DNA from: an uncultured Bacilli bacterium
GTDB taxonomy: Bacteria; Bacillota_I; Bacilli_A; RF39; UBA660
Length of the DNA: 64,000 nucleotides
Direction: 5' to 3'
Assembly: GCA_958413985.1 (NCBI GenBank)
Contig: CATYVZ010000006.1
Location: 2,072-66,071, forward strand
In this document: positions 2,141-26,372 of the stretch, one piece after another
Numbering within the stretch: the first letter of the stretch is position 1
Layout: each line of letters opens with the position of its first letter
Made by a program: the position numbers and the translations under genes
The notes under the pieces: generated by a model
The model's database searches: none
What the model saw: the letters and a program-made list of their open reading frames with translations, nothing else
What the model was told of the DNA's origin: nothing

Positions 2141-2179
2141 CTAATTCGATTATATAATCTTTTATTTGAAAAATTTGTC

Positions 2180-5178: not shown

Positions 5179-5219
5179 GTTAATTATTATACCAAAAAAA
5201 GTTTAAATATTTAAACTTT

Positions 5220-8157: not shown

Positions 8158-8173
8158 AATGATAAGACGAGCT

Positions 8174-8467: not shown

Positions 8468-8470
8468 ATT

Positions 8471-8875: not shown

Positions 8876-9123
8876 TTGATAAAATTAGTGACTAAAACTT
8901 CAAGAACTCTAGTTCGATCAAATTTTGTTATCTTGTTTCTTGCTTCTTTATGACTTGAAATATAACCAGGATCTCCGCTCATCAAATAACCGACTAACTG
9001 ATTTTTAGCGTTGTATCCTCTTTCTTCAAGTATTTCGATTACATCTTTGATTGTCTTAGCAATCAATTCGTCTTCTATTTCATTGGCTGTAAAGATTTTC
9101 GTTTCATCCATTATGAACACCAC
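8872..9123 (-). CDS. ireB: UPF0297/DUF965 protein IreB (YrzL-like)
   Basis: 83 aa containing ...GYLMSGDPGYISSHKEARNKI... Confidence 0.75.
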   Translation of the reverse strand: MVFIMDETKIFTANEIEDELIAKTIKDVIEILEERGYNAKNQLVGYLMSGDPGYISSHKEARNKITKFDRTRVLEVLVTNFIK

Positions 9124-9227
9124 CTTATCACAATTTAATTTTATCAGAATTTTAAATATTTTACAACATCTAAAACAATAAACATTATTAAATAGTTGTA
9201 AACAACTTAATTATTAGAAAAAAAGAC

Positions 9228-10541
9228 CTAGAGTTGATTATCTAAATCATTTCTTTGACCATCTTTTATTATATATTCTTCTTTAGTTCTTGAATCATAG
9301 ACATAGGTTACCTTTTGTGGTGTATTAACTTCTTCTTTTTTTATAAATATATTTTCTATCTTTTCTTTTACCTGTTCTTTGTTAAATGGTTTTGATATGT
9401 AATCTACAAATCCTTCTTTGATATATTTTTCTCTTGCTCCTGATACTGCATCAGCTGTTAATGCTATTACTGGTGTTTTAAATTCTTTATTTTCTTTTAA
9501 TTTGGCTAAAGCTCTTTCACCACTCATATTAGGCATCATTATATCCATCAATATTAAATCATATTCTTTTTCTTTTACTTTTTCGATGCACTCTATTCCA
9601 TCATAACATTCTTCTATTTCAAAGTTAAAATCTTGCAATGCTTTAATTGCTACTTTGATGTTTAATTTATTATCATCTACTATCAATATCTTTTTGCCTG
9701 ATAAATCTTTTTTGTTTTCGTTAGATAACTCATTTATATCGATATTTTCTCTTTTTTGATTACTTATTTTCTGAGGTAAATAAACTACAAATATCGATCC
9801 TTTTCCGTATTGACTTTGAACATTTATCTTACCACCCATCATCTCTACTAATGACTTAGTTATAGCTAGTCCTAATCCGGTTCCTTCGGTTGTTGAATTC
9901 ATCTCAACATCTAATCTTTCAAATTTAGTGAATAATTTGTTGATATTTTCTGCTTTTATTCCTTTCCCTGTGTCCTTAACACTTATGATTAATTTACATA
10001 TATCTTTTTCATTGATACATTTTATTCCTAATGTTATCATACCTTTTTCTGTATATTTGATCGCATTAGACAATAAATTGTTGATTACTTGTTTTATATG
10101 AATCCTATCCCCGATTAATTCTTCCGGTAAATCTTCAGCTATATCTAATTTAAATTCGATTGGTTTTTCTTTTATTCTACTAGTCGTCACTTTACATAAT
10201 GACACTATTTCTTTTTTTAAATTATATGGAGTATTGATAATTTCCATTTTTTCTGATTCGATCTTATTTATATCTAAGATATTACCTACTATTTCCAATA
10301 GCGTTTGTGAAGCATTTTGAATATCAGTAGCATCTAAAGCTACTTCGTTTGGTACTTGATCTTTATAGCTTACGATATCTTCACTTAATCCTACTATTGC
10401 ATTTAATGGCGTTCTTATCTCATGAGACATACTACTTAAAAAGTCACTCTTAGCTCGATTAGCTTTCTCAGCTAAATCTTTTGCTAGAGTCATTTGTTGT
10501 AACATCTTAACATCTGGATTTTCGATTGTAAAATACATGAT
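9228..10541. repeat. 1314-bp direct repeat, copy A. It is >99.7 % identical to 22500..23813 and covers the HisKA-HATPase-REC coding part.
   Basis: The two copies align base-for-base at an offset of 13272 bp, with 3 differences: 9231/22503 (g/a), 9258/22530 (a/g) and 10518/23790 (a/g). The latter two are synonymous. Identity stops abruptly after ...aaatacatgat. Confidence 0.9.
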
Positions 10542-11159
10542 TACACAAATTAAAGTCTCTATATATGTCATAATCAAAAGTTGAGGATTACTTATTTGAA
10601 TAGAAATCGCTATACCACCGATAATTAAAAATATAAAAACAGGTATATATTTTTTATTTTTAAGTTTATTAATATTTGTTACCAACATAAATAATATAAC
10701 AATAATTGCTAAAGCCGAAATAAGATAAGTAAAATAAACACTCGCTCCAGTTGTATATCTTATTTTGAAATCATTCTCAATAATTATATTGATAGGTAAA
10801 ATAGATAAAATAATACCTACAATTATATAATATATAATAAATATAACATATCTATTCTTCTTAATTTCTAAATCATTATTTATGATACTATAAATATAAT
10901 AAGCAAATGTAGAAATCCATAGAATTATATAAAACAGATAAATTTTATAAATAATTACACTAATTAAAGGATGGTCAAAATAAATAAAAGAAGCATAAGT
11001 GCATAATAATTCTATTATCAATCCTACAAAATTAGAAATTATCAAAACACTGAATATTTGTGTCTCTTTACTATTTATATGTCCCTTAACATAAAACAAA
11101 ATTATAACTAACAAACTAAAAGGTACTGCACATAAAGGAAAAAATATTCCACTTCCCAT
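9228..11159 (-). CDS. Hybrid sensor histidine kinase, copy 1. It has a multi-TM sensor domain, HisKA, HATPase_c and a C-terminal receiver (REC) domain.
   Basis: H-box SHEIRTPLNAIVG, G-boxes (GTGLGLAI) and a REC domain (ILIVDDN...LILMDIMMP). The likely start is the second Met at 11159, which has a GGAGG RBS; the track start at 11177 has none. The C-terminal ~437 aa are identical to copy 2. Confidence 0.85.
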   Translation of the reverse strand: MGSGIFFPLCAVPFSLLVIILFYVKGHINSKETQIFSVLIISNFVGLIIELLCTYASFIYFDHPLISVIIYKIYLFYIILWISTFAYYIYSIINNDLEIKKNRYVIFIIYYIIVGIILSILPINIIIENDFKIRYTTGASVYFTYLISALAIIVILFMLVTNINKLKNKKYIPVFIFLIIGGIAISIQISNPQLLIMTYIETLICVIMYFTIENPDVKMLQQMTLAKDLAEKANRAKSDFLSSMSHEIRTPLNAIVGLSEDIVSYKDQVPNEVALDATDIQNASQTLLEIVGNILDINKIESEKMEIINTPYNLKKEIVSLCKVTTSRIKEKPIEFKLDIAEDLPEELIGDRIHIKQVINNLLSNAIKYTEKGMITLGIKCINEKDICKLIISVKDTGKGIKAENINKLFTKFERLDVEMNSTTEGTGLGLAITKSLVEMMGGKINVQSQYGKGSIFVVYLPQKISNQKRENIDINELSNENKKDLSGKKILIVDDNKLNIKVAIKALQDFNFEIEECYDGIECIEKVKEKEYDLILMDIMMPNMSGERALAKLKENKEFKTPVIALTADAVSGAREKYIKEGFVDYISKPFNKEQVKEKIENIFIKKEEVNTPQKVTYVYDSRTKEEYIIKDGQRNDLDNQL

Positions 11160-11187
11160 ATCATAACCTCCATACATCTATTTTGAT

Positions 11188-11202
11188 GTAATTATACCAC
11201 AC
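11188..11202 (-). promoter_or_regulatory. TRTG-extended -10 promoter for kinase copy 1 (TGTGgTATAAT), with no obvious -35
   Basis: Minus strand reads ttttttttGTGTGGTATAATtacatc, about 25 nt upstream of the first ATG. Confidence 0.4.
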
Positions 11203-11219
11203 AAAAAAAAGAATAGCAA

Positions 11220-12986
11220 TTATATACTATTCTTCAATTTTAATACTTTTGAGGCATTTATTTTTTCAACTGCATCATTTTCTAAATAGTCATAGTCAAT
11301 TTTTTCTGTACCCTTTTTTCTAGGAATCTCTGAAACAAATTCAATATAAGTAGGTATTTCATAGCGTTTTAATTGTTCTACTTGTCCATTGGCAGTTATT
11401 ATCGGTTTATTAAACTGTTCTTTAATTTCTTCTAAAACTTGATCTGATTGTTCTACTCCATCATTTAAAACAATATACGCCTTATTAACATATAAAGAAT
11501 CTTTAGCTGGAACTTTAACAACAGCACATTCACTCACTTTATCAAAATAAGAAATAATGTTTTGAACACGATCACAATATACTTTATTTAATGTAGAAAT
11601 TATATAAAATCTTGACTGTCTTCCTGTTAAGGTAAAATAACCTTGACGATCAATGAAACCTAAAGTACCAGTTTTAAAGTATATTTTTCCATCTTTTTCA
11701 AATTTAGCTTCTTTAGTTAATTCTGGCTGTTTATAATATTCCTTAAAAACATGTTTACCACAAACACATAATAATCCTTCTTCGTTGTATTTTTTTTCTT
11801 CCATTGTATCAGGATCAACTATAATTGCCTCGGTTCCAACAAGAATCTTGCCAGCTGTTTCCGGTCTTATTTCGATTCCTGTTGGATTAGTTCCACAACT
11901 TACCGTTTCAGCATTTCCTGAACCATTACCTATTTCTACGTTCTTAGCTCCATGATTTTCAAAAAAGTCTTTACCTCTCTTATAATGATTTGGAGTCAAA
12001 AAATCTCCTCCAGAAATAAATGTAGTAATAGATGATAGATCTTGATCTTTAGGTGTATAACGCATAATTAATTCTAATAATGCTGGACTTCCAAAGATAA
12101 TATTAGGCTTTTTCTTCAAATAATAACAAATAGTATCTTTGGAAATATTAGGAGCAAGAATTGCTGTTTTTTTACTCAATAAAGTCATAATTGTTGATGT
12201 GGCAAAACCATAAGGATAAGAAAATGGTACGCATACGAGTGTTCTATCACCATTTAAAGATTTAATGTGACTAGAATTTTTTAAATATACTCCTGCCGCC
12301 AAAACATTTTCATTAGTTAAAACAACCGATTTTGGTTTACCTGTTGTACCACTGGTAAATAATATCAAAGCGTCATCTTTCCCAGAGTTATTTGCCAAAC
12401 CTTTGCTCTGATATTTAGAAATACTTCCTAAACTATTAAAGTCGATCTTACTGTCATCACTAGTAATATGATAATCTTCATTTAATGATAATGTATTTGT
12501 TTTTTGTTTATCTAAAGTAATAATATATTTAACATTTGTTTTATTTTTTATATTAATATTTTCTTCTTTACTTTTATCATAGTTAATGAAAACAGGTGAT
12601 TCGAATAAATTAAGATAATCACAAATTTCATCTACTTGTGCATTAATATCTAAAAATGTCATCACCGCACCAATTCGATTACAAGCTAAAAATGCTGCTA
12701 CCGCCTGATAATAATTGGGCATACACACTGAAATAATATCGTTTTTTTTGACACCTAATTCTTTTAAAGCTTTGGAAATAGTTATAGCATCTTTAAATAG
12801 TTGATCATAACTTACTGTTAGATCAAGACAATCAATAGCATCTTTTCCTTTATAAAATGAATTTATTAATTTAATAGAATTGTAAATACTCATATTAGGT
12901 ATAATTGGATTTTTAGCAAAAATTGAATAACCTTTATTCTGTGGTTTATCAAAACTAGGATAGTCTTTAAAGTTTTCTTCCTTCAT
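11220..12986 (-). CDS. adenylate-forming enzyme, copy 1 (AMP-dependent synthetase/ligase, acyl-CoA-ligase-like)
   Basis: A3/core motif LFTSGTTGKPKSV, a YGxTE-like motif and a C-terminal domain. Strong GGAAGGGGGA RBS. Confidence 0.8.
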   Translation of the reverse strand: MKEENFKDYPSFDKPQNKGYSIFAKNPIIPNMSIYNSIKLINSFYKGKDAIDCLDLTVSYDQLFKDAITISKALKELGVKKNDIISVCMPNYYQAVAAFLACNRIGAVMTFLDINAQVDEICDYLNLFESPVFINYDKSKEENINIKNKTNVKYIITLDKQKTNTLSLNEDYHITSDDSKIDFNSLGSISKYQSKGLANNSGKDDALILFTSGTTGKPKSVVLTNENVLAAGVYLKNSSHIKSLNGDRTLVCVPFSYPYGFATSTIMTLLSKKTAILAPNISKDTICYYLKKKPNIIFGSPALLELIMRYTPKDQDLSSITTFISGGDFLTPNHYKRGKDFFENHGAKNVEIGNGSGNAETVSCGTNPTGIEIRPETAGKILVGTEAIIVDPDTMEEKKYNEEGLLCVCGKHVFKEYYKQPELTKEAKFEKDGKIYFKTGTLGFIDRQGYFTLTGRQSRFYIISTLNKVYCDRVQNIISYFDKVSECAVVKVPAKDSLYVNKAYIVLNDGVEQSDQVLEEIKEQFNKPIITANGQVEQLKRYEIPTYIEFVSEIPRKKGTEKIDYDYLENDAVEKINASKVLKLKNSI

Positions 12987-13015
12987 TTATTAATCCCCCT
13001 TCCAAAATCAAATAT

Positions 13016-13044
13016 ATAATAACGCAAATAACATTTTATGTCAA
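13016..13044 (-). promoter_or_regulatory. sigmaA-type promoter for the ligase-1/kinase-1 operon (TTGACA-17-TATTAT)
   Basis: Minus strand reads TTGACAtaaaatgttatttgcgtTATTAT, about 30 nt upstream of the RBS. Confidence 0.45.
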
Positions 13045-13090
13045 TTTTATTAAAATGACTAAATAAACGTTTTTCCGCTTATATAATTTA

Positions 13091-13459
13091 TTATTTATAA
13101 TTTTTTATTCCTTCTATATATTTTTTATAAATTATTCTTAAATTCCATAACCAATTTACTACATAATCAGAAAATTCACTTTCACTACCTAACTTATCAT
13201 TACAGATATATTTTGTCTGAAGAATATCTGATTTTTCGTAAAGATTTATCAAAATTTCGTTATCAATCATGTCTAGTTTTCTAGTTTTTTCATATTGTGC
13301 TGCCCATTTTGATATTATTTCTAACATATTATTGTATATTTCAAAATCTTCTTTATAAGTATCAAATTGTAAAATCAAATTTAAATAACCCATAAGACTT
13401 ATAAAGCATTTGCTAATATTTTTATAAGTCGGATTTGAATCTATATATTTATTTTTCAT
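13091..13459 (-). CDS. hypothetical protein (122 aa)
   Basis: ORF with no recognisable motifs. Confidence 0.4.
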   Translation of the reverse strand: MKNKYIDSNPTYKNISKCFISLMGYLNLILQFDTYKEDFEIYNNMLEIISKWAAQYEKTRKLDMIDNEILINLYEKSDILQTKYICNDKLGSESEFSDYVVNWLWNLRIIYKKYIEGIKNYK

Positions 13460-13511
13460 AAATTTTCCTTTTTTTAATACATATTATAATTTTTTATTAT
13501 TTAGAAAATTA

Positions 13512-14028
13512 TTACAAATCAAATTCGTAAATATTTTCTATGATTTTCAATCCACCAACATTTCCATCTTCACTATCGATTATTTTTCCACCTAATGCCG
13601 TGTAAAAATTTTCAGATGGACTTCCTTTTAAACATCTAACTATTATATTTTTATATCCCATATTTTTTAACAAATCAAAACATTCTGTAATTAATTTTTT
13701 ACCAATTCCTTTTCTTTGATTTTCTTTTTCTATATATATTGAATAAACTTCACCCATATCTACATAATCATTTCCACGTCCTTTACCATAGCAAGCAAAA
13801 CCCAATATGTCATTATCTTCTTCATAAACAATATAATGATATTCATTATCTTTTTTTATAGCTTCTTTTATATTATTATTTCTTTGTTCAAAATTTTTCT
13901 CTTGATTTATAAATATTTCTTCAGGAAAAAACTCACTATAAGTTGTCTTCCATGAATTTATATGTATTCTAGTTATTTTTTTTATGTGTTTATAGGTAAT
14001 CTTTGAAATACTTTTACATTTTTTCCAT
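13512..14028 (-). CDS. GNAT family N-acetyltransferase whose 5' end is disrupted by a +1 frameshift in an A6 tract. This could be a pseudogene, a slippage site or a sequencing error.
   Basis: The GNAT body frame is open from 14033 down to 13512 (...ITRIHINSWKTTYSEFFPEE...YHYIVYEEDNDILGFACYG...QRKGIGKKL...) with no in-frame start. An ATG at 14028 is followed by ATGGAAAAAATGTAA. Removing one A from the tract (14019..14024) fuses the ATG in frame, giving MEKCKSISKITYKHI... A TRTG-extended -10 (TGTGgCATAAT) lies at 14070..14081. Confidence 0.5.
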
Positions 14029-14170
14029 AAATATCACTTAATTCTTTATCTATATTTGATTCAAGATGTGATTATGCCACACGAAAGAAAATGGATATTA
14101 AAAATAATCTTATGATTTAGGACTAATTCTATGATTTATTTATCAACTTTAATATCAATAATAAAACACA

Positions 14171-14887
14171 TCATATATTTAGAATACTTTTAACTTCTTT
14201 TGCAGCTTGACAAATCAATTTAGTGCCATTTGACAAACATATTTTTCCATGACCAGATAAAACTATATCAGCTTTATATTTTGTTAACTTTATTATACTA
14301 TTAACAATTGCTTCTTTATTAAAAGCTGGATCCCCTTCCCAACCAAATAAAAATTTATTTAAGAAGACGCCATCTGCTTCCAATGTGTCACCGGTAAACA
14401 AAACAAATTCACCATCAACTTTTGCCCTAATAGCCATTCCTCCATTTGTATGCCCTGGTATCATAATAAATTCAAATACAATACCATTGATAATCATTTC
14501 TTGATCTACAAATATTTCTACATCAGGAATAAACGCAGGAAATGATTGTTCTATGTCATCTGATGTTCCTTTTGGACCGCCTTGTTTACAATAATTTGTA
14601 TCACCTGCCCCTACTATTATCTTTGCACCTGTCATTTGTAATTCTTTAGCACCGCCACAGTGATCATGGTGTCCATGAGTAAGAATAACATGCGTTATAG
14701 GCGAATTAATATTAAATTTTTTTAACGTTTTTCTTATTATAGCAGGACCGTTTAAAGCCTCTCCGCAATCTATTAATATTAATCCTTGATCTGTATTTAT
14801 ACCATATACTTCGCCTAATGTCCCTTTATTATTTTCAGCAGCAAAGCAGCTACCACTTAAATAAAATAAATTATTTGAAATTATCAA
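14171..14887 (-). CDS. MBL-fold metallo-hydrolase
   Basis: HxHxDH motif (THGHHDHCGG) with the downstream His and Asp ligands. TTG start with a GGAGG RBS. Confidence 0.75.
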   Translation of the reverse strand: MIISNNLFYLSGSCFAAENNKGTLGEVYGINTDQGLILIDCGEALNGPAIIRKTLKKFNINSPITHVILTHGHHDHCGGAKELQMTGAKIIVGAGDTNYCKQGGPKGTSDDIEQSFPAFIPDVEIFVDQEMIINGIVFEFIMIPGHTNGGMAIRAKVDGEFVLFTGDTLEADGVFLNKFLFGWEGDPAFNKEAIVNSIIKLTKYKADIVLSGHGKICLSNGTKLICQAAKEVKSILNI

Positions 14888-14915
14888 TTAAATCATCCTC
14901 CTTAAGATAAATTAT

Positions 14916-15623
14916 TTAATCAGCAATATCTACTGTTTCATCATCATTTGAAATAAGTTCAATATTTCCTTTACAAATTCTATAACATTTCCCATAAATT
15001 TTATTATTAAATACATATGATTTATCAGGAAGTCCATAAATAATTCTATTATTTGATTCTTTTATTATTGCATCCATTTGAATCTTGTTAGGATTATCAC
15101 AATCAAAATGCGGCTCAACATTAATTGTAGTTAAATCAAGTCCTTCTAATATAGTAGGGTTAGTTAAATCTTTTTCATTTTCAGGACTACTAAATACAAT
15201 TTTTGCACTATTTATTGAACCAGCACTTATGCCAACAATACACGCATCAGTTTTTTTTATATATTTTTTAAGATTTATGTTATTAAAAAACTTGTTTTGT
15301 TGAAATGCATTACCACCACTAAGAAAAATAAGTGAACTATTATTAAGTACATTATCAATATCTTCTTTATTACGATTATCAAGTACAACATTTTCCTTGA
15401 AGTGAAGCCCAGATAACGCTAGGACTTTCATATCTAATTTTAGATACTCATCATTTTGTTCATAATTATCAGGATCGCTCGCAATAATAACAAATTTATT
15501 ATAATTATTTATATTTTCCTTCATATTTTTTAAAAAATTATTATCTTCAAAAAATTTTACTGGTATTTTTTTACCATTTTCTTTTTTTATCCCCCCAATA
15601 TTACTAGCTAAAAATAATTTCAT
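14916..15623 (-). CDS. S51 family peptidase (peptidase E/cyanophycinase-like; Asp-Xaa dipeptidase fold)
   Basis: LSGGN and GISAGS nucleophile-elbow motifs, plus conserved His and Glu. Strong AAGGAGGA RBS. Confidence 0.65.
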   Translation of the reverse strand: MKLFLASNIGGIKKENGKKIPVKFFEDNNFLKNMKENINNYNKFVIIASDPDNYEQNDEYLKLDMKVLALSGLHFKENVVLDNRNKEDIDNVLNNSSLIFLSGGNAFQQNKFFNNINLKKYIKKTDACIVGISAGSINSAKIVFSSPENEKDLTNPTILEGLDLTTINVEPHFDCDNPNKIQMDAIIKESNNRIIYGLPDKSYVFNNKIYGKCYRICKGNIELISNDDETVDIAD

Positions 15624-15633
15624 TTTATCCTCC

Positions 15634-16656
15634 TTATTTATTAATGTTATACAATAAACTATTTTCTATATTTTTTTGTAAAGTTAACACTTTGTAAAAC
15701 TCATCTTTTTTTTGTTCAAAACTAGAATGATATTCCGCACCCAAATAATTTATAATTAAATTAACTACATCTTCATTAGGATATTGTAATTGCTCATTCC
15801 AATAATTTAATACACGTAAATATTGCCTAAATTTCATTCTTAAATGCTTGGATGAATGATTAGTAACATCTTCTTTTAATAAAATTGCTACAGCTACTAA
15901 TGCATCAGCAAATTTTTCTTTCATAATAGAATCTATATCAAGAAAATCTGCTATTCTTGAGCTGGATACTGTTGAACTTGTACCAAATTTACACATTGAT
16001 AAAGCTAAGTTACTGATTCCCATATCGACAGCTAACTTTCTTTCATTATTTTCCATAACAACAAAAGAAGCAAAATTCAAAAACTCGTTTGTACCTTTTT
16101 TTTTAAGTCCTATATTAAAATCCCTTCCAAAAATATTTTTTTCATCCATACCATATCGATGTCTATAATGTTCAATACTTGATTGATCAACTAAACGAGT
16201 TATTTTACTATCAACATTTTCAGTAGCCTTTATTAAATCCTCATCCGTAGAACTTACCCTTATACAAAGATTTTCAGGAGAGATATGCAAATATTTTTCA
16301 TCAGTTAAATAATCAAAAGTATCTTTAACAATTCTTTCTAGTTCTGGTTTTGCTATTATTCCCATTCCTCTATAATAACAGCCAAATTTTTGCGGTACAT
16401 TTGTTTGTAAATATTTAAATGATTTAAATTTCATACACTCTTGCACGATATATCTTCCAACATCACCGTAATTTTCAGTCTCTAAGTATTTTTTTAATGG
16501 TGAAATATTAGAACCAATAAAGTCAACCGTTGGATCAATTTTTGAAGTAACATTAACTGCAAGTTCTTCAATGTATCCTTTCTCATTAAAACAAACTTTA
16601 AATTTTTCTTCTATAAAATCTAAATATTCGCTTTTGCTAATTTTTTTATCACTCAT
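15634..16656 (-). CDS. stand-alone paralog of the alanyl-tRNA synthetase catalytic core (class II aaRS-like, AlaRS N-terminal domain only)
   Basis: 340 aa that align by eye to the first ~250 aa of the alaS in this window. DPTVDFIGSNISPLKKYL matches DPSVLFNTAGMQPLIPYL, QECMKF matches QKCIRT, ISPENLCIRVS matches IPVERLAVTVF, and AVDMGISNLALS matches the motif-3 region NVDTGMGYERV. The tRNA-recognition and editing domains are absent. Confidence 0.55.
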   Translation of the reverse strand: MSDKKISKSEYLDFIEEKFKVCFNEKGYIEELAVNVTSKIDPTVDFIGSNISPLKKYLETENYGDVGRYIVQECMKFKSFKYLQTNVPQKFGCYYRGMGIIAKPELERIVKDTFDYLTDEKYLHISPENLCIRVSSTDEDLIKATENVDSKITRLVDQSSIEHYRHRYGMDEKNIFGRDFNIGLKKKGTNEFLNFASFVVMENNERKLAVDMGISNLALSMCKFGTSSTVSSSRIADFLDIDSIMKEKFADALVAVAILLKEDVTNHSSKHLRMKFRQYLRVLNYWNEQLQYPNEDVVNLIINYLGAEYHSSFEQKKDEFYKVLTLQKNIENSLLYNINK

Positions 16657-16661
16657 TTATA

Positions 16662-18506: not shown

Positions 18507-18523
18507 AATTCATGTCTCCTATA

Positions 18524-20707
18524 TTATTTTTTAAAATCAGTTTCACTAATTTTACTTTCAACTATTTTAAACTTTTTATTTTCATATACTATTTTACAAT
18601 AATCAATATCAATATATTGTTCACCATCAATTGCTGACTTCAAATTACTCATTGTTGCTCCATGAGTAATGATTGCAAACTTCTTATAAGAACTATTAAC
18701 TAAATATTTTTCTAAAAAATACATTAATCTTTCCCTAACATGATTAATACTTTCACCATCAGCTACAACTTTATTATAATTAACAATTGCCTCTTTACCT
18801 TCTTGACTATTTAAAAAATCAGAAAGTGGTTTACCTTGAAATTTTCCCACATTCCAAGCTCTTAACTCTTTATGAAAAGATACTGGTATTTTAAAACCAT
18901 TATTAGCTAGTTCAACGGTTCTTCTAGTCCTAATAAGATCTGATGAATAAATATATTCAATTTCATTTTTCTTTAATTCTAAAGCAATTTTATTAATTTG
19001 CTCTAATCCTTTATCAGTAAATTTCAAAGATGCATCTTCAAATGTTCCTCTAATTTTATTTTCAACATTCCAATTAGTTTCACCATGTCTAAAAATATAA
19101 ATTTCTTTTTTGTCATTTTTTTTACTATTCTTCTCTTCTAACTTTTTCATTGGAGATAATCTATCTCTTAATCTGAAATCCATATTTTTATTATCGTTAA
19201 CAAAATCTTCTATTTTATTTATTTTTTTATCTGGAAAAAACATATTATAATATGCAATTGCTGTTTGAACATCTTGTTCTGACATTTCAAAGTGTCCTAG
19301 TTTAACTAACCCTAAGAAATCTTTATACTTATCCCTATCTAGTTGTTCACTTAATTCTTGATTTAATATTGAAGTATTAGAATTTAGATAATATTTTTTT
19401 ATAACATTTTTAGGTGATTTTATTAATTTTTGCATACTAACAGGCATGTTTTCTATTAATTTTTCATTTACAAGCCCTTGCTTTATGTAATCTTGTAATA
19501 TTCTAATATAAGCATAAAGCCTTATTTTTGCATCAGCAAAAAGGATTGCACTTGCATAATCTCTAATACCATTAGCTTTCATTAACGTAACTGTTTTAGG
19601 TGATATTTCTAATACAATTTTTTCTCTATATTTTGAACCATTATCAATATATGCTCTTGTAATTAAATTTGTCAATGTATGATTTAATGATGTTTCGTAA
19701 TTATCTTCATAGATATTTAATTGATCATCTTGAATACTATTTTGCCATGTACTAATGTTGCCATTATATTCTACAAGCCAATCTAATCCAAATCCACCAT
19801 CAGAATTATATACACGTGACGGAAAATAATTTTGTGATTCATCTAAATCTATGTCATACAGTTCTACCATTTTCATAAATGATTCATTATTATGTAGATT
19901 TGGTCTAAATGATGGATAAAATACCCTTGATATTCCAATTATTATTTCAAAACCAGAATCGAGTATTAATTTTGATTTCCAAGGCATTATCTTAATAATT
20001 TTATCATCATCAGATTTATTAGGTTGAAACTTTTCAATTTTATATTTTCTCCCAATTGTTTTTAGATTATTTTCTAATGTTGAATCTTCTTTAAATGTTT
20101 TTATTTGTAAAGTAAAGTTTTTATTATATCTATATTTAGATTCAAATATATTAATTAAGTTTTCTAACGGAAGATGTTTTAATTTAATACTATGATATTG
20201 ACTAACACTTAATCTAATAGAGATACGTGCTTTCTTTTTTCTTTTTTTGATAGCTTGATATATTTCATCTAAATATTTTTCCGCTCTTTCTTTATTATAT
20301 GCCCATAGACCACCAGTAACTAAAACTATCCTATCAGCGTTTATTTTTTCAATACTTTTTAATAGTGCTTCTTTTTCTAAAAAAGGCTCTCCGCCACCAG
20401 ATATTTGTAAATAACCAACATTTGCTTTATTAGCAAAATCAATAAATTTATCAACACCTTCAGGAGTAAATTGATTCTTAATATTCTTTTTACTAGCTGA
20501 CGATAAAGCTTTAAAACAGCAGAAAGGACAGCCAACATCACACACTGATGTAAACATAACCAATACCAATGATTTTCCTGCATATTTTTTCTTATCAATT
20601 TTTAATAAACCTTCTTGTTTATTAATTGAATCTATATACATTTCTGGATAATTAAATATATTTTCTATATTACAATCAATATTTTTTATTTCTTCTTTTT
20701 TCACCAT
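18524..20707 (-). CDS. fusion protein: N-terminal radical SAM domain, a central domain of unknown function, and a C-terminal histidine phosphatase (phosphoglycerate-mutase-like) domain
   Basis: CDVGCPFCC radical-SAM cysteine triad with a QISGGGEP SAM-binding motif. The C-terminus has IYIFRHGETNWN (RHG catalytic motif) and ...IITHGATM... typical of the His_Phos_1 superfamily. Confidence 0.75.
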   Translation of the reverse strand: MVKKEEIKNIDCNIENIFNYPEMYIDSINKQEGLLKIDKKKYAGKSLVLVMFTSVCDVGCPFCCFKALSSASKKNIKNQFTPEGVDKFIDFANKANVGYLQISGGGEPFLEKEALLKSIEKINADRIVLVTGGLWAYNKERAEKYLDEIYQAIKKRKKKARISIRLSVSQYHSIKLKHLPLENLINIFESKYRYNKNFTLQIKTFKEDSTLENNLKTIGRKYKIEKFQPNKSDDDKIIKIMPWKSKLILDSGFEIIIGISRVFYPSFRPNLHNNESFMKMVELYDIDLDESQNYFPSRVYNSDGGFGLDWLVEYNGNISTWQNSIQDDQLNIYEDNYETSLNHTLTNLITRAYIDNGSKYREKIVLEISPKTVTLMKANGIRDYASAILFADAKIRLYAYIRILQDYIKQGLVNEKLIENMPVSMQKLIKSPKNVIKKYYLNSNTSILNQELSEQLDRDKYKDFLGLVKLGHFEMSEQDVQTAIAYYNMFFPDKKINKIEDFVNDNKNMDFRLRDRLSPMKKLEEKNSKKNDKKEIYIFRHGETNWNVENKIRGTFEDASLKFTDKGLEQINKIALELKKNEIEYIYSSDLIRTRRTVELANNGFKIPVSFHKELRAWNVGKFQGKPLSDFLNSQEGKEAIVNYNKVVADGESINHVRERLMYFLEKYLVNSSYKKFAIITHGATMSNLKSAIDGEQYIDIDYCKIVYENKKFKIVESKISETDFKK

Positions 20708-20761
20708 TTTTCAACATCTACTTTCTTTGTTTTTTTTACAAGATTCCTATTATTAAACATA

Positions 20762-22201
20762 CTATCTTTTATTAAATTCTTTTATCTTTCTTTTTGCATA
20801 AGTGGTCTGTGCTTTATTTATCCAATCTTCTCTTGGCCCAAATGATAAATCATCAGTAACTATTCTAACTCTATCTTTATTTTGTAATACATAATCTACT
20901 GGTACATATTCATCATTTACAAACACTCCAACCATTGTGTTTCCTATATCTGTATGAATTTTATAGGCAAAATCTATCGCTGTCGCCCCTTTGGGAAGCT
21001 CTATAATATCTCCTTTAGTTGTATAAACATATACTCTATCAGCAAATAATTCACTTTTTACTTGATTTATAAATTGTTGATTATCTCCAAACATAGAATT
21101 TATTTCTGTTAACGATTTAAAAAATTGAAATTTTTCTTTTAGATTCTCTTGCATCACATCTCTTGCTTTTCCTTTTTGTTCATCCCAATATGCCGTTAAA
21201 CCAAACGATGCTACTTTGTCCATATCGAAAGTTCTAATTTGAGTTTGAACTAATCTATCATCAGGACCAAACACTGTCGTATGTAAACTTCTATACATAT
21301 TTGTTTTTGGATTACATATATAATCTTTAAATTTATCATTTATTGGATGATATTCTTGATGAATCAAACCTAATGTTAAGTAACAATTTTCTATTTCATC
21401 AACCATTATTTTTAAAGCAAGCAAATCATGAATATCTGATAATTTATGACCTTCATTTAATCTTTTGTATATACCATATATATTTTTAGTTCTTACTTTT
21501 ATTTCATTAGGTATATTCCTATTTTTTAATAATGTTTCTATTTTATATAGCATTTCCTTAAGACAGTTTTTACTTGTTTCTTCAATCTTTGTTTTTCTTT
21601 CTTCAATTTTTTTATACATGTCTGGTTTAAGATATTGTAAAGATAAATCTTCTAGTTCTGACTTTATTCTATATGCTCCGATATAATATGCAAGTGGTAC
21701 AAATATTTCCATCGTTTCAAGGGCATTTTCTTTTTGCTTAAATTCTGATTTAAACTCTAATGTTCTCATATTATGAAGTCTATCGGCAAGTTTTATTATA
21801 ATTATTCTTACATCTTCTGTTATTCCTGTTATTATCTTTCGAGTATTTGCTAAATTTTGATCTTGTTTCGAAGAAAAATTCATTTTAGATAGTTTTGTTA
21901 CTCCATCTACTAAATTAGCAATATTTTGGTTAAAATCATGGGCAATATCTTCTTTAGTAATATTAGTATCTTCTAAAGTATCATGTAAAAGACCTGCACA
22001 TACTGTATCTTTATCAGCATGCATGTCAGATAAAATATATGCAACATTCAAAGGATGACTTATATATGGTTCACCACTTTGTCTCATTTGTCCTTTATGC
22101 AAAGCATCTGCATATTCATAAGCCTTTTTTACAATTCCTATCTCATCTGGATTATATTCTTCTAGTTTATTTAATAAATCTTGTAACACAATATTATTCA
22201 T
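20762..22201 (-). CDS. RelA/SpoT homolog (long RSH; HD hydrolase + synthetase + TGS) that lacks the C-terminal helical/ACT(RRM) region. The true start is at 22201.
   Basis: HD motif LLHDTLEDT, synthetase motifs (IHDLLALKIMV; RSLHTTVFGPDDRLVQTQIRTFDMDKVASFGLTAYW) and a TGS domain (VYVYTTKGDIIELPKGATAIDFAYKIHTDIG). The ATG at 22201 has a GGAGGTG RBS. The 24-codon upstream extension in the ORF track lacks one. Confidence 0.8.
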   Translation of the reverse strand: MNNIVLQDLLNKLEEYNPDEIGIVKKAYEYADALHKGQMRQSGEPYISHPLNVAYILSDMHADKDTVCAGLLHDTLEDTNITKEDIAHDFNQNIANLVDGVTKLSKMNFSSKQDQNLANTRKIITGITEDVRIIIIKLADRLHNMRTLEFKSEFKQKENALETMEIFVPLAYYIGAYRIKSELEDLSLQYLKPDMYKKIEERKTKIEETSKNCLKEMLYKIETLLKNRNIPNEIKVRTKNIYGIYKRLNEGHKLSDIHDLLALKIMVDEIENCYLTLGLIHQEYHPINDKFKDYICNPKTNMYRSLHTTVFGPDDRLVQTQIRTFDMDKVASFGLTAYWDEQKGKARDVMQENLKEKFQFFKSLTEINSMFGDNQQFINQVKSELFADRVYVYTTKGDIIELPKGATAIDFAYKIHTDIGNTMVGVFVNDEYVPVDYVLQNKDRVRIVTDDLSFGPREDWINKAQTTYAKRKIKEFNKR

Positions 22202-22250
22202 CAAAACACCTCCGAATAGAAAAATAATCGGTGCTAAAAACACATAATGT

Positions 22251-22388
22251 TTAACTAGCACCGATATTATCATATTTGTTATTTAAAGCAGAATAGAAAC
22301 ATGAACAAATAATGTCAGTAAAATATTGATTTCTAACACTTAATTCTTTTACATAATCAATGATTAATTCATCAATTAGTTTTATCAT
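22251..22388 (-). CDS. small protein (45 aa), first gene of the operon
   Basis: MIKLIDELIIDYVKELSVRNQYFTDIICSCFYSALNNKYDNIGAS. It has a very strong RBS (GAGGGGGAA + 6 nt + ATG) directly downstream of the operon promoter. Confidence 0.45.
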   Translation of the reverse strand: MIKLIDELIIDYVKELSVRNQYFTDIICSCFYSALNNKYDNIGAS

Positions 22389-22420
22389 ACTAAATTCCCC
22401 CTCAAATAAATTTAAGCAAT

Positions 22421-22448
22421 ATTTTACTACTTTACAAAAAAATGTCAA
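22421..22448 (-). promoter_or_regulatory. sigmaA-type promoter (TTGACA-16-TAAAAT) for the operon small ORF -> rel-like -> rSAM/His-phosphatase -> B12-rSAM -> AlaRS-like -> S51 peptidase -> MBL hydrolase
   Basis: Minus strand reads TTGACAtttttttgtaaagtagTAAAAT, followed by intergenic gaps of only 5-54 nt down to 14171. Confidence 0.45.
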
Positions 22449-22499
22449 TAGTTTTATAAAAATAAATCACCGTTAAAACAATTAATATCTAAAATACAT

Positions 22500-23813
22500 C
22501 TAAAGTTGATTATCTAAATCATTTCTTTGGCCATCTTTTATTATATATTCTTCTTTAGTTCTTGAATCATAGACATAGGTTACCTTTTGTGGTGTATTAA
22601 CTTCTTCTTTTTTTATAAATATATTTTCTATCTTTTCTTTTACCTGTTCTTTGTTAAATGGTTTTGATATGTAATCTACAAATCCTTCTTTGATATATTT
22701 TTCTCTTGCTCCTGATACTGCATCAGCTGTTAATGCTATTACTGGTGTTTTAAATTCTTTATTTTCTTTTAATTTGGCTAAAGCTCTTTCACCACTCATA
22801 TTAGGCATCATTATATCCATCAATATTAAATCATATTCTTTTTCTTTTACTTTTTCGATGCACTCTATTCCATCATAACATTCTTCTATTTCAAAGTTAA
22901 AATCTTGCAATGCTTTAATTGCTACTTTGATGTTTAATTTATTATCATCTACTATCAATATCTTTTTGCCTGATAAATCTTTTTTGTTTTCGTTAGATAA
23001 CTCATTTATATCGATATTTTCTCTTTTTTGATTACTTATTTTCTGAGGTAAATAAACTACAAATATCGATCCTTTTCCGTATTGACTTTGAACATTTATC
23101 TTACCACCCATCATCTCTACTAATGACTTAGTTATAGCTAGTCCTAATCCGGTTCCTTCGGTTGTTGAATTCATCTCAACATCTAATCTTTCAAATTTAG
23201 TGAATAATTTGTTGATATTTTCTGCTTTTATTCCTTTCCCTGTGTCCTTAACACTTATGATTAATTTACATATATCTTTTTCATTGATACATTTTATTCC
23301 TAATGTTATCATACCTTTTTCTGTATATTTGATCGCATTAGACAATAAATTGTTGATTACTTGTTTTATATGAATCCTATCCCCGATTAATTCTTCCGGT
23401 AAATCTTCAGCTATATCTAATTTAAATTCGATTGGTTTTTCTTTTATTCTACTAGTCGTCACTTTACATAATGACACTATTTCTTTTTTTAAATTATATG
23501 GAGTATTGATAATTTCCATTTTTTCTGATTCGATCTTATTTATATCTAAGATATTACCTACTATTTCCAATAGCGTTTGTGAAGCATTTTGAATATCAGT
23601 AGCATCTAAAGCTACTTCGTTTGGTACTTGATCTTTATAGCTTACGATATCTTCACTTAATCCTACTATTGCATTTAATGGCGTTCTTATCTCATGAGAC
23701 ATACTACTTAAAAAGTCACTCTTAGCTCGATTAGCTTTCTCAGCTAAATCTTTTGCTAGAGTCATTTGTTGTAACATCTTAACATCTGGGTTTTCGATTG
23801 TAAAATACATGAT
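22500..23813. repeat. 1314-bp direct repeat, copy B (partner of 9228..10541)
   Basis: See copy A. Confidence 0.9.
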
Positions 23814-24413
23814 AATAACAATTAGCGAAAAAACATATCCTATTAAAAATAATTGTGGATAAAAAACACCTAAAACAAAAACTAAACCACCTAAAAAAAT
23901 TAAGGCATATAATGGTGTAAATTTAGATTTTACAATTTTCTTCATATATTTTATGCAAATAATTATATCAAACATTAAAAATAGCAAACACAAACCGTAA
24001 GTTAAATAAATTGATAATCCTTGCGGAATTATGGTATCGTCAACTCTAATAAAGTTGATTGGTAACAACAATATAATTAATACGATAAAAGCAACAATAA
24101 AATTAAATATTCTATTTCTATTTTCTTTATAGTTACATATATTTAACAAATAATTTAAAAACAATGCGCTCCAAACAGCATAATATGAAGATGTTAATTT
24201 AGAAAACAACTTATATATAGTTGTTTCAACAGATATTCCAGATTCATACCAAATACAAGTTAATATTTCTAAAAATAACCCCAATAATGTAACTATTAAT
24301 AACTTACTATAAATAGTTGTTTCACTATTTTTTACTCTTTGTTTTGAAAAAAACATAAATGACAAAATTAACAATATTAGTAATGAACTAATTGAAAAAT
24401 ACACACCCATCAT
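22500..24413 (-). CDS. Hybrid sensor histidine kinase, copy 2. Its multi-TM sensor domain differs from copy 1; the transmitter and receiver are identical to copy 1.
   Basis: The C-terminal ~437 aa are identical to copy 1. The N-terminal ~200 aa (about 6 TM segments) are unrelated in sequence. Start is ambiguous between GTG at 24422 and ATG at 24413 or 24410. Confidence 0.85.
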   Translation of the reverse strand: MMGVYFSISSLLILLILSFMFFSKQRVKNSETTIYSKLLIVTLLGLFLEILTCIWYESGISVETTIYKLFSKLTSSYYAVWSALFLNYLLNICNYKENRNRIFNFIVAFIVLIILLLPINFIRVDDTIIPQGLSIYLTYGLCLLFLMFDIIICIKYMKKIVKSKFTPLYALIFLGGLVFVLGVFYPQLFLIGYVFSLIVIIMYFTIENPDVKMLQQMTLAKDLAEKANRAKSDFLSSMSHEIRTPLNAIVGLSEDIVSYKDQVPNEVALDATDIQNASQTLLEIVGNILDINKIESEKMEIINTPYNLKKEIVSLCKVTTSRIKEKPIEFKLDIAEDLPEELIGDRIHIKQVINNLLSNAIKYTEKGMITLGIKCINEKDICKLIISVKDTGKGIKAENINKLFTKFERLDVEMNSTTEGTGLGLAITKSLVEMMGGKINVQSQYGKGSIFVVYLPQKISNQKRENIDINELSNENKKDLSGKKILIVDDNKLNIKVAIKALQDFNFEIEECYDGIECIEKVKEKEYDLILMDIMMPNMSGERALAKLKENKEFKTPVIALTADAVSGAREKYIKEGFVDYISKPFNKEQVKEKIENIFIKKEEVNTPQKVTYVYDSRTKEEYIIKDGQRNDLDNQL

Positions 24414-24461
24414 AACACCCACTTATTAATAAAATTTAACATCATTTACTTATCTCTAAAA

Positions 24462-26180
24462 TTATTTTTTTAGTGCCAATACTTTAGCTCTTTCTTCTGT
24501 TATAGTTTCACTATCTATTTGAGATAAATCTTTAGACTGATAATAAGATATATCAACCTTTGAGTTACTCATTCTTTTTAACGGCTCATAAGAATATTCA
24601 ATATATCCTGGTAACCAATTTTCACTTAAATTCTTTTTAACAAAAGATTTTAATTTCTTTTCGAATTGTTCTATATTTAAATTCTTATCATATAACGAAA
24701 TGTGATAGCTAGGAATAAATTGTCTAATTTCATCAGGCACACCAGTTACTAGTACTTCTCTAACTTGAGGAAAAGACATAATCAAGTTTTCTAATTCCTC
24801 AGGATAAATATTTTCAATACCAGAGACAAAATTTCTTTTTTGTCTTCCTACATATTTGTATTCACCAGTTTCTGTATTTTGAATATAGTCCCCTAGATTA
24901 CACCATTTTTTTCCATGTTCATCGTAAGAAATCACTTTTTTTGTTTCGTCAGGATTATTAAAGTAACCTAGCATTACAGATGGACCAGATACATAAAGCA
25001 ATCCTTTTTCACCATTATTGACTTCTTTTTTTGTTTCTGGGTCAACTAATTTAATTTCTAAACACGATAAAGCTTGACCAATCGTTCCGGGCGTGTGTTT
25101 TTTACCATTATTAATCATAATAGATGACCAAGTTTCCGTAGCGCCTAATCCATCACCTAATACTGCATCACTTCCACATAACTTTAATGCTTCATTAATA
25201 GCTTTTTCGGTTGTCGCTTTTTTAGCTTCCCCACCTGATGTAGCATAATGCAAATGAGATAATGAATCTTGTTTCAATCTACTGCTTGGAACGAAGTCAT
25301 CTCCTTTTTTTTCGATCAATGAAACCCAATGCGGTGGACCACCTACTGCTGCATTTGCTTTAGTCCTTACTAATTCATCATAAAAATCTTCTGGCTTAGC
25401 TTTCAATGTTAAAGCTAATTCCATGTTATTGCATAATGAATAATGCATAATCATTCTACCATAAACCATATGGCCGATTGGAATATTACCTAAATGGATC
25501 ATGCCCGGCTCAGCATCAAAAATGCCGTTCATACTTGCTACAACATGATTTAAGCCTTTTCCAGATAATTCTACACCTTTGTGAATCCCAGTCGAACCAC
25601 CAGTGAACATTACATCAGTAACCTCATCATCTATATAGATACCTTTTTTAAAGTCAGTACCATCATCCTTTTTAATAATCGAATTTAAATTTGAATTTCT
25701 TGACAATTTAAAATTACCTTTTTTTAATTGTAAAATTTTATATCCTAATTTTAATTTCATATCATTTACAGATTCTAATGGTGAATAAAGTATAGTCGAA
25801 AAATTTAAAGCCTTTTCATATTCCTTAAAATTACTATAACTCATATCGACAGAAATAATCATTTTCGGATGCGTTAATTCGATATCTTTTCCTACTTTTA
25901 TTTTATTATCGATAGGGCTTATACCTACCACTTCTGCACCTAATAAATCTAAAGCATATAACAAAAACACAGATTCAGGAGTATTTAAAGCGCAGACACC
26001 TATCATATCTCCTTGTCTAATTCCTCTTTGATATAATATTTTTGCATATTTATTTATCCTATCATGTAATTCTTCATAAGATATTTTTCTATCAAAAAAA
26101 GTTAATGCTGTATAATTCATATACTTGTCGTTATTGTTCAACAAAAAATTATACTTTCTATCATTTGGATTTGCCACCAT
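24462..26180 (-). CDS. adenylate-forming enzyme, copy 2 (AMP-binding superfamily), diverged from copy 1
   Basis: MFTGGSTGIHKGV P-loop-like adenylation motif. AAAGGGGGAAAA RBS. A TRTG-extended -10 (TGTGtTATAAT) lies at 26231..26247. Confidence 0.75.
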   Translation of the reverse strand: MVANPNDRKYNFLLNNNDKYMNYTALTFFDRKISYEELHDRINKYAKILYQRGIRQGDMIGVCALNTPESVFLLYALDLLGAEVVGISPIDNKIKVGKDIELTHPKMIISVDMSYSNFKEYEKALNFSTILYSPLESVNDMKLKLGYKILQLKKGNFKLSRNSNLNSIIKKDDGTDFKKGIYIDDEVTDVMFTGGSTGIHKGVELSGKGLNHVVASMNGIFDAEPGMIHLGNIPIGHMVYGRMIMHYSLCNNMELALTLKAKPEDFYDELVRTKANAAVGGPPHWVSLIEKKGDDFVPSSRLKQDSLSHLHYATSGGEAKKATTEKAINEALKLCGSDAVLGDGLGATETWSSIMINNGKKHTPGTIGQALSCLEIKLVDPETKKEVNNGEKGLLYVSGPSVMLGYFNNPDETKKVISYDEHGKKWCNLGDYIQNTETGEYKYVGRQKRNFVSGIENIYPEELENLIMSFPQVREVLVTGVPDEIRQFIPSYHISLYDKNLNIEQFEKKLKSFVKKNLSENWLPGYIEYSYEPLKRMSNSKVDISYYQSKDLSQIDSETITEERAKVLALKK

Positions 26181-26372
26181 ACAATTTTCCCCCTTTAATT
26201 AATATCAAAACTTCAATAGCGCTGCACGAAGTGATTATAACACAAAATTTTTTTTATGCTGGTTTTATGTTTGAAATAGGAAACCAAATGTTTTAACAAA
26301 AAAATAATTGTCTAAAACATATATTTTTATGTCTATTTTATTATAATCTTCAAAAGATTATCAAAAAAAAGA

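Follow-up and report, generated by a model that had tools for sequence, protein, structure and literature searches.

Is the 17 kb of DNA that separates alaS from ireB in an uncultured gut member of the Bacilli an acquired genomic island, or is it a resident part of the chromosome? We addressed this question in a stretch of 64,000 nucleotides (hereafter the window) from contig CATYVZ010000006.1 of assembly GCA_958413985.1, positions 2,072 to 66,071 of the forward strand. An initial annotation of this DNA had described an accessory island inserted into the gene order alaS-ireB-ruvX-DUF1292-mltG and bounded by near-identical direct repeats. Our analysis argues for a different reading. We consider it likely (probability about 0.65) that the alaS-ireB interval is a resident hypervariable tandem array of ligase and sensor-kinase cassettes and not a single imported island. 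Each cassette would consist of an ANL (acyl/aryl-adenylating) ligase and a sensor half of about seven helices, joined to a kinase-receiver core that is common to all cassettes.

The comparison sequences were metagenomic contigs (numbered here with the prefix L). Those of the same species were obtained by exact-protein look-ups and were 99.2-100% identical to the window in the flanks, and those of sister species had 90-93% identical AlaRS, 81-87% identical MltG and 73-85% identical RuvX. In this species and its sister species, the fully spanned intervals measured 4.2, 4.5, 9.6 and 17.2 kb, and one to three modules were found in each. The number (one to three) and the type of the cassettes vary between strains, and each sensor type keeps its own ligase type. 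The window carries types B and A in 17.2 kb. Another contig of the same species (L003; 130 kb, flanks 99.3-99.5% identical) has only alaS, a 628-aa ligase, a 647-aa kinase and ireB, with an interval of 4.2 kb and type C. Its homology with the window continues to position 26225 (148 nt past alaS), gives way to 2.6 kb of novel sequence and begins again from position 10538, the start of a repeat described below, so that L003 holds 2.6 kb in place of 15.7 kb in the window. Among the sister species, L105 has one module of type D (4.5 kb), and L103/L104 have three ligases, a 225-aa kinase fragment, one kinase (type E) and a remnant of a GNAT gene (9.6 kb). L109 has, in this order, alaS, ligase, kinase, intact GNAT gene, orphan ligase, further ligase and kinase, which represent type C, an orphan type D ligase and type B.

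The different cargo that the initial annotation had expected in relatives was therefore found. As the alternative it had named relatives in which alaS directly adjoins ireB, and this arrangement was present in none of the four spanned intervals of this and sister species and in 0 of 11 distant relatives with at least 5 kb of sequence after alaS. Since ligase/kinase modules occur in all spanned relatives, they are the constant theme of the interval and not an intrusion. Even in a distant relative (L066, AlaRS 53% identical), alaS is followed by a ligase, a hybrid kinase and an Hpt-REC protein. In L106, which belongs to another species, the type A pair adjoins mraY and not alaS. The run RRF, AI-2E transporter, DNMK-like gene, cmk and alaS on the upstream side is kept in relatives, whereas the region downstream of alaS is not.

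The genes of the window were identified by Pfam and NCBIfam profile scans, and the scan of the interval covered all 12 open reading frames (ORFs) of at least 80 aa in 9228-26180. The window has a G+C content of about 28%, and nearly all of its genes are carried by the minus strand, including all the flank genes. The gap from ireB to alaS is 17,249 bp. The features of the locus are as follows.

6539-7135: Methyltransf_3 (yrrM-like) gene, downstream of mltG
7105-9123, minus strand: conserved flank mltG (YceG)-DUF1292-ruvX-ireB, from Pfam; 99-100% identical in the same-species contigs L003-L012
7105-8157, minus strand: mltG
8174-8467, minus strand: DUF1292 gene
8471-8875, minus strand: ruvX
8872-9123, minus strand: ireB
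9219-10541: direct repeat copy 1, the kinase-core coding part of HK1 and 9 bp beyond its stop codon
9228-11159, minus strand: HK1, hybrid histidine kinase with sensor type A; start codon as in database protein P0001
11220-12986, minus strand: Lig1, ANL-superfamily (AMP-binding) ligase of the type that partners sensor A
13016-13044: promoter-like site upstream of Lig1
13091-13459, minus strand: 122-aa ORF (unk122) with no family match
13512-14009, minus strand: GNAT acetyltransferase reading frame
14171-14887, minus strand: MBL hydrolase, Rel operon
14916-15623, minus strand: S51 peptidase, Rel operon
15634-16656, minus strand: paralogue of the AlaRS catalytic fragment (340 aa), Rel operon
16662-18506, minus strand: B12-binding radical-SAM protein, Rel operon
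18524-20707, minus strand: fusion of radical-SAM (Fer4_12 type) and His_Phos, Rel operon
20762-22201, minus strand: short Rel, 479 aa
22227-22448, minus strand: control region of the Rel operon
22491-23813: direct repeat copy 2, the kinase-core coding part of HK2
22500-24413, minus strand: HK2, hybrid histidine kinase with sensor type B
24462-26180, minus strand: Lig2, ANL ligase of the type that partners sensor B
26225-26372, minus strand: conserved 148-nt segment downstream of alaS; homology with L003 ends at 26225
26373-28124, minus strand: alaS, short 583-aa form (NF002436)

These scans agree with the initial annotation on the gene order, with mltG-DUF1292-ruvX-ireB at 7105-9123 and alaS about 17 kb away, and on the content of the interval, namely two ligase/hybrid-kinase pairs (9228-12986 and 22500-26180) with a radical-SAM/Rel/AlaRS-like operon between them.

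The N-terminal 210 aa or so of HK1 form a membrane domain with about seven hydrophobic segments; HisKA, HATPase_c and REC domains follow, and there is no Hpt domain. Both kinases combine HisKA, HATPase_c and a receiver in one protein, and neither reached a curated NCBIfam equivalog cutoff. We divided 120 kinase homologues at the conserved motif T[IM]ENPD into sensor and core. Six sensor types (A-F) were found, which are mutually 25-36% identical; in all of them 5-7 hydrophobic segments occupy corresponding positions, and no such segment occurs in the remainder of the protein. In the window species, types A (HK1), B (HK2), C (L003) and D are joined to cores 99-100% identical to that of HK1, and in the sister species types B, C, D, E and F are joined to cores 88-92% identical to it. 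Types B, C and D are common to the window species and the sister species. The ligases follow the sensors, with 76-100% identity within a type and 25-32% between types. Lig1 is 76% identical to the ligase adjoining the type A kinase in L106, and Lig2 is 88-89% identical to 572-aa ligases of L103 and L109, whose neighbours are a truncated kinase fragment and a type B kinase (HK_B), respectively.

Each module consists of two genes, with spacers of 39-42 nt. No small ORF or peptide pheromone precursor gene was found in or beside the modules, and they contain no transporter or downstream catabolic gene. Judging from the profile scans, no curated family appears to claim these kinases or ligases, and we found no description in the literature of polymorphism in a ligase and hybrid-kinase cassette.

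The near-identical 1.3-kb direct repeats of the initial annotation are present, but they do not bound the block. Positions 9219-10541 and 22491-23813 form a direct repeat of 1,323 bp with 6 mismatches (99.55% identity). All six mismatches lie no more than 40 nt from one end or no more than 24 nt from the other, and the central 1,259 bp (9259-10517 in copy 1) are identical. The two copies are paralogous kinase coding sequence; that is, they correspond to the 3' two-thirds of both kinase genes, which encode the cytoplasmic HisKA-HATPase-REC part, and the cytoplasmic parts of HK1 and HK2 are 100% identical in protein sequence. Copy 1 is located at the ireB-side edge, whereas copy 2 sits 2.56 kb inside the alaS-side edge. 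With a start-to-start distance of 13,272 bp, the copies bracket a 13.3-kb unit and not the whole block.

The kinase cores evolve in concert and stay near-identical within a genome. Over about 1,314 nt, the cores differ at 3 positions within the window and at 10 within L109, and the differences rise to 17-20 between same-species strains and 160-180 between species. The cassettes themselves show another pattern. Between L003 and L109, nucleotide identity is 86-88% at the 3' end of alaS, 78-81% in the intergenic region, 97-100% in the ligase and sensor of cassette C, and 84-92% in the core. This shows that cassette C moved recently between species, with breakpoints at the cassette edges. In cassette B only the sensor part is elevated, with 96-98% identity.

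Such a pattern may be explained by RecA-type homologous recombination, in which the kinase cores and the conserved promoter segment after alaS would act as arms for the swapping of cassettes. We infer that the 148-nt segment at 26225-26372 is the upstream homology arm for this exchange. A recA gene is located in the window at 52580-53596. Gene conversion would homogenise the cores, and recombination would delete or duplicate anything lying between two cores. Because the cores of the window are identical over 1.26 kb, the 13.3-kb unit between them is expected to be unstable, and the short-Rel operon, the decaying GNAT gene, Lig1 and the type A sensor would loop out together. The different strains could then be derived from a pan-array of the form alaS-[C]-GNAT-[D]-[B]-Rel operon-GNAT-122 aa-[A or E]-ireB, and the single-module strains (L003, L105) would be its core-core deletion products.

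Two small reading frames lie beside Lig1. The GNAT frame has 165 open codons; its intact counterpart in L109 encodes 166 aa and is 85% identical. No ATG, GTG or TTG start occurs in the frame before 13805, and thus the gene is probably decaying inside the array. A further-deleted remnant of the same gene adjoins ireB in L103. The 122-aa ORF does not contain any histidine and thus is not an Hpt protein.

Some short elements were also observed in this region. The motif TGTGTGGYATAATYACATC, which resembles an extended -10 element, occurs at 11185-11203, 14065-14083 and 26228-26246 (minus strand), all inside the interval; 0.06 copies are expected by chance in the window, against the three found. 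The copy at 26228-26246 adjoins the L003 homology breakpoint, at the end of the conserved promoter-bearing segment. We considered the motif as a recombination site and rejected this, since it was not found in the sister-species loci and is specific to this species, and since it resembles an extended -10 promoter. In three contigs of the same species (L004, L010 and L011), a 199-aa Peptidase_C39_2 gene separates a kinase core from ireB. Upstream of this gene lie the promoter segment and a degenerate start of the small ORF of the Rel leader, and downstream of it the final ~20 bp of the kinase gene are present a second time.

What would such cassettes do? Each of them may be a cognate enzyme-receptor pair for a distinct lipophilic carboxylic acid, in which the ligase makes or consumes the ligand and the sensor detects it, and all cassettes would feed one downstream phosphorelay. 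A sensor of seven helices with minimal loops points to a ligand that is soluble in the membrane, and the pairing with an ANL ligase points to a carboxylic acid or an acyl derivative as this ligand. That a single phosphorelay lies downstream is implied by the identical receiver domains.

We compared this arrangement with known systems. In the ComQXPA system of Bacillus subtilis and its relatives, the enzyme, the signal and the membrane domain of ComP are variable and the cytoplasmic kinase part is conserved, which results in discrete pherotypes (PMC4008528, PMC4408185). Similarly, the ligase and sensor of the array are variable in at least six types, and the core is constant. As in ComQXPA and agr, a gene adjacent to the sensor (here the ligase) co-varies with the sensor type and might by analogy have a signal-making role, and different lineages share types in a way that does not follow the core genome. 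However, the array has no peptide pheromone gene or isoprenyl transferase, since its variable partner is an ANL ligase, and its kinase is a hybrid HisKA protein with a receiver, whereas ComP belongs to HisKA_3. The array types are also 25-36% identical in amino acids, compared with 65-70% nucleotide identity between comQ clusters (PMC4408185).

The Vibrio pairs CqsA/CqsS and LuxM/LuxN consist of a synthase and a hybrid-kinase receptor, and their kinases converge on the phosphorelay protein LuxU (PMC3376566). Like CqsS and LuxN, the array kinases have the order HisKA-HATPase-REC, a membrane-embedded sensor and no Hpt domain, and the identity of the HK1 and HK2 cores implies that these, too, share a single partner downstream. 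In contrast, the array enzyme is an ANL ligase unrelated to the acyl-CoA transferase CqsA or to LuxM, no LuxU-like Hpt protein was found in the window, and the host is a gut bacterium of a Gram-positive lineage. To our knowledge, strain-level cassette polymorphism is not a described feature of these Vibrio pairs. In its architecture, the array parallels ComQXPA and the Vibrio pairs, and it differs from them in its ANL ligase partner, the lack of a peptide precursor and the tandem types.

In the Xanthomonas Rpf system of the diffusible signal factor (DSF), rpfB encodes a fatty-acyl-CoA ligase (an ANL enzyme of the FadD type) and adjoins rpfC, a hybrid kinase that senses a fatty-acid signal. RpfC has a multi-helix membrane sensor and an Hpt domain. 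The array resembles this system, at the level of generic domains only, in having an ANL ligase adjoining a hybrid kinase with a multi-helix sensor, and it differs in having no RpfF-type synthase and no HD-GYP regulator. We know of no cassette polymorphism in Rpf/DSF.

Based on these comparisons, we weakly prefer a self-made signal (pherotype-like communication or kin-discrimination types), to which we would assign somewhat less than half of the functional probability, over the sensing of dietary or host acids, to which we would assign not quite a third. The preference comes from the bare pair of enzyme and receptor without transport or catabolic genes, and from types that are shared across species. 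In its full form, the proposal would be that uncultured gut Bacilli use a form of strain-specific chemical communication or kin recognition not described before, in which a lipophilic acyl signal made by the ligase is read only by the co-inherited seven-helix sensor. At least six such 'dialects' would be traded between species and recombined onto one shared kinase core, and each strain would carry one to three of them beside alaS. We put this full form forward tentatively and consider it more likely wrong than right.

A nutritional or xenobiotic role is the rival that survives best. Each ligase would then activate a different dietary or host carboxylic acid, for example a fatty acid, for uptake in a reduced-genome auxotroph, the kinase would sense the compound, and the differences between strains would reflect niche adaptation. 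The ligases do most resemble fatty-acyl/malonyl-CoA synthetases, and several types coexist in one genome. Type A also appears to be the widely and vertically inherited one, since in distant homologues its sensor is 50-70% and its core 53-75% identical to HK1, so that the two ranges are much alike. However, the absence of transporter and catabolic genes from the modules speaks against this role, as do the discrete types, the recent inter-species transfer and a strict two-gene layout, which are typical of signal/receptor pairs. None of these points is decisive, and we regard a nutritional role as unlikely but worth serious consideration.

The classical genomic island would be a single block of foreign DNA, about 17 kb long, that was inserted between alaS and ireB when these were still adjacent, with the 1.3-kb repeats as its ends. 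The initial annotation had counted the Rel operon as part of the accessory block; yet this operon is intact in other neighbourhoods. In L110 a 45-aa small ORF is followed by Rel, radical-SAM/His_Phos, B12 radical-SAM, a 332-aa protein, S51 and MBL, between ddl/Lon-like genes and mutS-nusB-xseAB-proS. In L112-114 the order is Rel, a 325-aa protein, radical-SAM/His_Phos and S51, between ham1 and tyrS. The operon of L115 has a serine recombinase upstream and nrdD downstream, and L134 has Rel, a HAD phosphatase, a 226-aa protein, a radical-SAM enzyme, S51 and the AlaRS-like paralogue. The distal genes are kept as a unit in L110, L115 and L117. Downstream of HK_B, L109 agrees with the window in its promoter, small ORF and hairpin and in the Rel that comes next (96% identical). 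This junction is thus not a strain-specific insertion, and it either predates the species split or moved as one piece. The Rel operon is thus a conserved clade-wide unit and not accessory cargo. The alaS-ireB intervals of L003, L103 and L105 do not contain it.

The Rel protein itself has 479 aa, starts with MNNIVLQ (22201) and has a GGAGG ribosome-binding site upstream. It contains HD, synthetase and TGS domains in the order usual for long RelA/SpoT proteins, and it ends 30 residues after TGS, without their C-terminal regulatory domains. It matches TIGR00691 with 529 bits (cutoff 499) over profile positions 1-450 of 687. More than 120 database clusters, at 88-100% identity, consist of such short proteins with 478-481 aa (475 aa in one entry), and this form is the rule in the clade. 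One homologue (89% identical) is named from Clostridium sp. CAG:710, which we take to belong to the order RF39. The closest relatives of the AlaRS, with one genome per species, come from uncultured gut Bacilli, Tenericutes and Clostridia metagenome-assembled genomes (MAGs), with best identities of 89% (partial) and 80%. The host is of a Bacilli/'Tenericutes' kind and probably belongs to the RF39 group.

We also considered lateral transfer of the Rel operon, as Rel is 75% and AlaRS 55% identical to the proteins of L068, and rejected it because Rel evolves slowly, so that the contrast is not evidence of transfer. Rel is 87-88% identical in L134/L135 and 73-75% identical in L112/L068, and the operon partners there are 46-55% identical or not detectably similar. 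Directly upstream of the Rel operon in L115, a large serine recombinase, an HTH protein and a sigma-70-like protein were observed at 988-4039, which hints at a mobile element beside the operon in that genome.

The gene called AlaRS-like by the initial annotation deserves this label. Its 340-aa product has no Pfam match and only weakly matches the N-terminus of the short AlaRS model (E 1.4e-6; hhalign E 1.2e-4). Its AlphaFold model (pLDDT 91.5), in contrast, superposes on AlaRS catalytic fragments, which are its best PDB matches (3hxu, E 1.6e-15, TM 0.73), so the label is correct. The family to which it belongs has proteins of about 320-340 aa with no Pfam domain in 59 database clusters (loci L110-L150), and in its consensus a lysine replaces the motif-2 arginine. 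Its genes often follow Rel, and they often neighbour a Fer4_12-type radical-SAM enzyme, an S51 peptidase and a phosphatase (fused His_Phos, or a separate HAD protein in L134). From these neighbourhoods, the AlaRS-like/radical-SAM/S51/phosphatase set looks like a conserved pathway. We found no description of the Rel/radical-SAM/AlaRS-like operon in the literature.

In the control region of the operon, a promoter-like site (22421-22448, 11/12 matches) precedes a small ORF of 45 aa (22251-22388) and a hairpin of 17 pairs (22227-22265; fold z = -3.3), and a U-run comes directly after the hairpin. This leader layout is found upstream of Rel in five lineages, represented by the window, L110 (4276-4460), L112 (~8276-8450), L068 (~13851-13990) and L109 (~12100-12285). 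The leader ORFs have 32-56 aa and share a motif of the type [IY]-x-S-C, and in every lineage compared the final codons of the ORF lie within the 5' arm of the hairpin. Together, these elements look like a leader-peptide attenuator of a stringent-response operon. We considered, and did not adopt, the small ORF as the precursor of a ribosomally synthesised and post-translationally modified peptide, or as a scaffold peptide, for the radical-SAM enzymes; the attenuator is favoured because the C-termini are not conserved and the 5' arm of the terminator overlaps the end of the ORF.

Three points would favour an island. First, alaS and ireB are linked in other Firmicutes: in Paenibacillus, a DUF965/IreB homologue is 'linked to AlaS' (PMC9425974). 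An ancient adjacency of the two genes is plausible, and it is preserved in no genome examined from this clade. Even the set ireB-ruvX-DUF1292-mltG lies near alaS in only 1 of the 11 distant relatives (L024), at a distance of 5.1 kb, and the genes between are housekeeping genes (lepA, a hemN-like gene, a cadherin-like protein and a GDPD gene). The gene order of B. subtilis also links alaS to ireB. Second, the content of the interval differs between strains. Third, the G+C content at third codon positions (GC3) is lower inside the interval (0.151) than in 30 flanking genes (0.211; Mann-Whitney p = 2e-5).

The initial annotation had suggested a check of composition across 9.2-26.3 kb; this revealed the GC3 drop, whereas no break in GC skew was seen across the interval. 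The codon frequencies of interval and flanks have a correlation of 0.96. Low GC3 (0.11-0.16) was found in the Rel-operon genes, the two small ORFs (unk122 and GNAT) and Lig1, and the values of HK2 and Lig2 (0.19-0.20) fall within the flank range, with HK1 intermediate (0.175). The low GC3 could result from low expression or from older foreign ancestry.

The hallmarks of an island were not found. None of the 12 interval ORFs encodes an integrase, recombinase, transposase or other mobility protein according to Pfam and NCBIfam, there is no tRNA gene in the 64-kb window, and no Rfam element was matched within the interval. Short att-like direct repeats were not found at the block ends, and the only long repeat is the kinase coding sequence, which does not coincide with the block edges. 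A defence island was rejected as well, since PADLOC gave only weak and generic domain matches for the Rel-operon proteins and the 122-aa ORF. Moreover, no relative has an empty site, modules fill the interval in all spanned relatives, the distant L066 has one after alaS, and the Rel operon is conserved across the clade. Thus, of the acquired and recombination-prone locus that had been proposed, the variability and the shaping by recombination are supported, and a single island acquired into an adjacent gene pair is not. The classical island is already largely refuted, and we consider it highly improbable.

Slightly less probable still is an assembly artefact, in which the collapse of a 1.3-kb repeat would have brought together modules and the Rel operon from different strains or loci. 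In its favour, the two repeat copies do not differ at all over their central 1,259 bp, and in many samples short-read contigs stop inside the repeat. Against it, most unique junctions are reproduced by independent contigs (alaS-Lig2-HK2 sensor in L001 and L002, Rel operon-Lig1-HK1 sensor in L093-L095, core-ireB in L005-L009 and L012, core-Rel promoter segment in L004 and L010), although for the window species no independent contig runs from the core through the promoter into Rel (this junction was seen only in L109). The repeat has two entries and two exits, for which the window order is the sole linear path using all segments, and the sister-species contig L109 has tandem modules and the same HK_B-to-Rel junction.

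Several observations weigh against the resident array and the function proposed for it. The low GC3 of the Rel operon and Lig1 is not accounted for by an array of cassettes. Unlike in ComQXP or agr, a single genome can carry several types in tandem, and these differ from one another as much as ordinary paralogues do. Therefore, the cassettes may be parallel sensors with presence/absence variation and not alleles. The ligases match only generic acyl-CoA-synthetase/luciferase relatives, all below curated cutoffs, and neither an Hpt protein nor an output regulator was found within the 64-kb window. Kinase homologues with a fused Hpt domain do occur (P0038, P0102, P0110 and P0118), and in L066 a Hpt-REC gene is adjacent. 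Finally, the window probably comes from a 90-kb metagenome-assembled contig, the 1.26-kb exact repeat cannot be phased by short reads, and most comparison contigs break there.

Other features of the window were noted. The alaS gene matches NF002436 with 806.8 bits (cutoff 529), and the match covers residues 4-586 of the 586-aa ORF that begins at an upstream GTG. The initial annotation had placed this gene at 26373-28133; its position is right, but 28133 corresponds to the upstream GTG, and the true start is MNLKDLY, which gives the gene 26373-28124. This start overlaps the upstream cmk. The product contains the catalytic domain and a compact editing domain and has no C-Ala domain. The same short form (NF002436) also occurs in candidate phyla radiation (CPR) bacteria, DPANN archaea, spirochaetes and gut Firmicutes MAGs, and its relatives are common among reduced genomes. 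A 6S RNA is located at 4144-4325 (minus strand, 72.5 bits), and a class B RNase P RNA, a type that fits a Bacilli/Mollicutes-type host, at 54796-55128 (minus strand, 267 bits). A perfect 26-bp palindrome at 5196-5221, between an SLT gene and an ATP_bind_3 (tilS-like) gene, is probably a terminator. The region 48288-52464 is a patch of very low G+C content (0.21-0.23) with a DUF3137 protein and an unannotated 355-aa ORF, and it has a HerA-type helicase on the opposite strand (PADLOC HerA, 357 bits). This patch is a possible defence locus and resembles an island more closely than the alaS-ireB block does.

For the organism, the island-like block holds the only recognisable (p)ppGpp enzyme of the clade, bracketed by perfect 1.26-kb repeats. 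Repeat-mediated deletion could yield strains without a stringent response, and the repeats could also explain why most short-read assemblies break at this region. Essentially nothing is known of cell-to-cell signalling in uncultured reduced-genome gut Bacilli. If the cassette reading holds, the alaS-ireB locus would offer this group a compact marker for strain identity and social compatibility that is easy to type. It would also be a natural case of modular sensor swapping on a fixed kinase core, which is a goal of sensor engineers.

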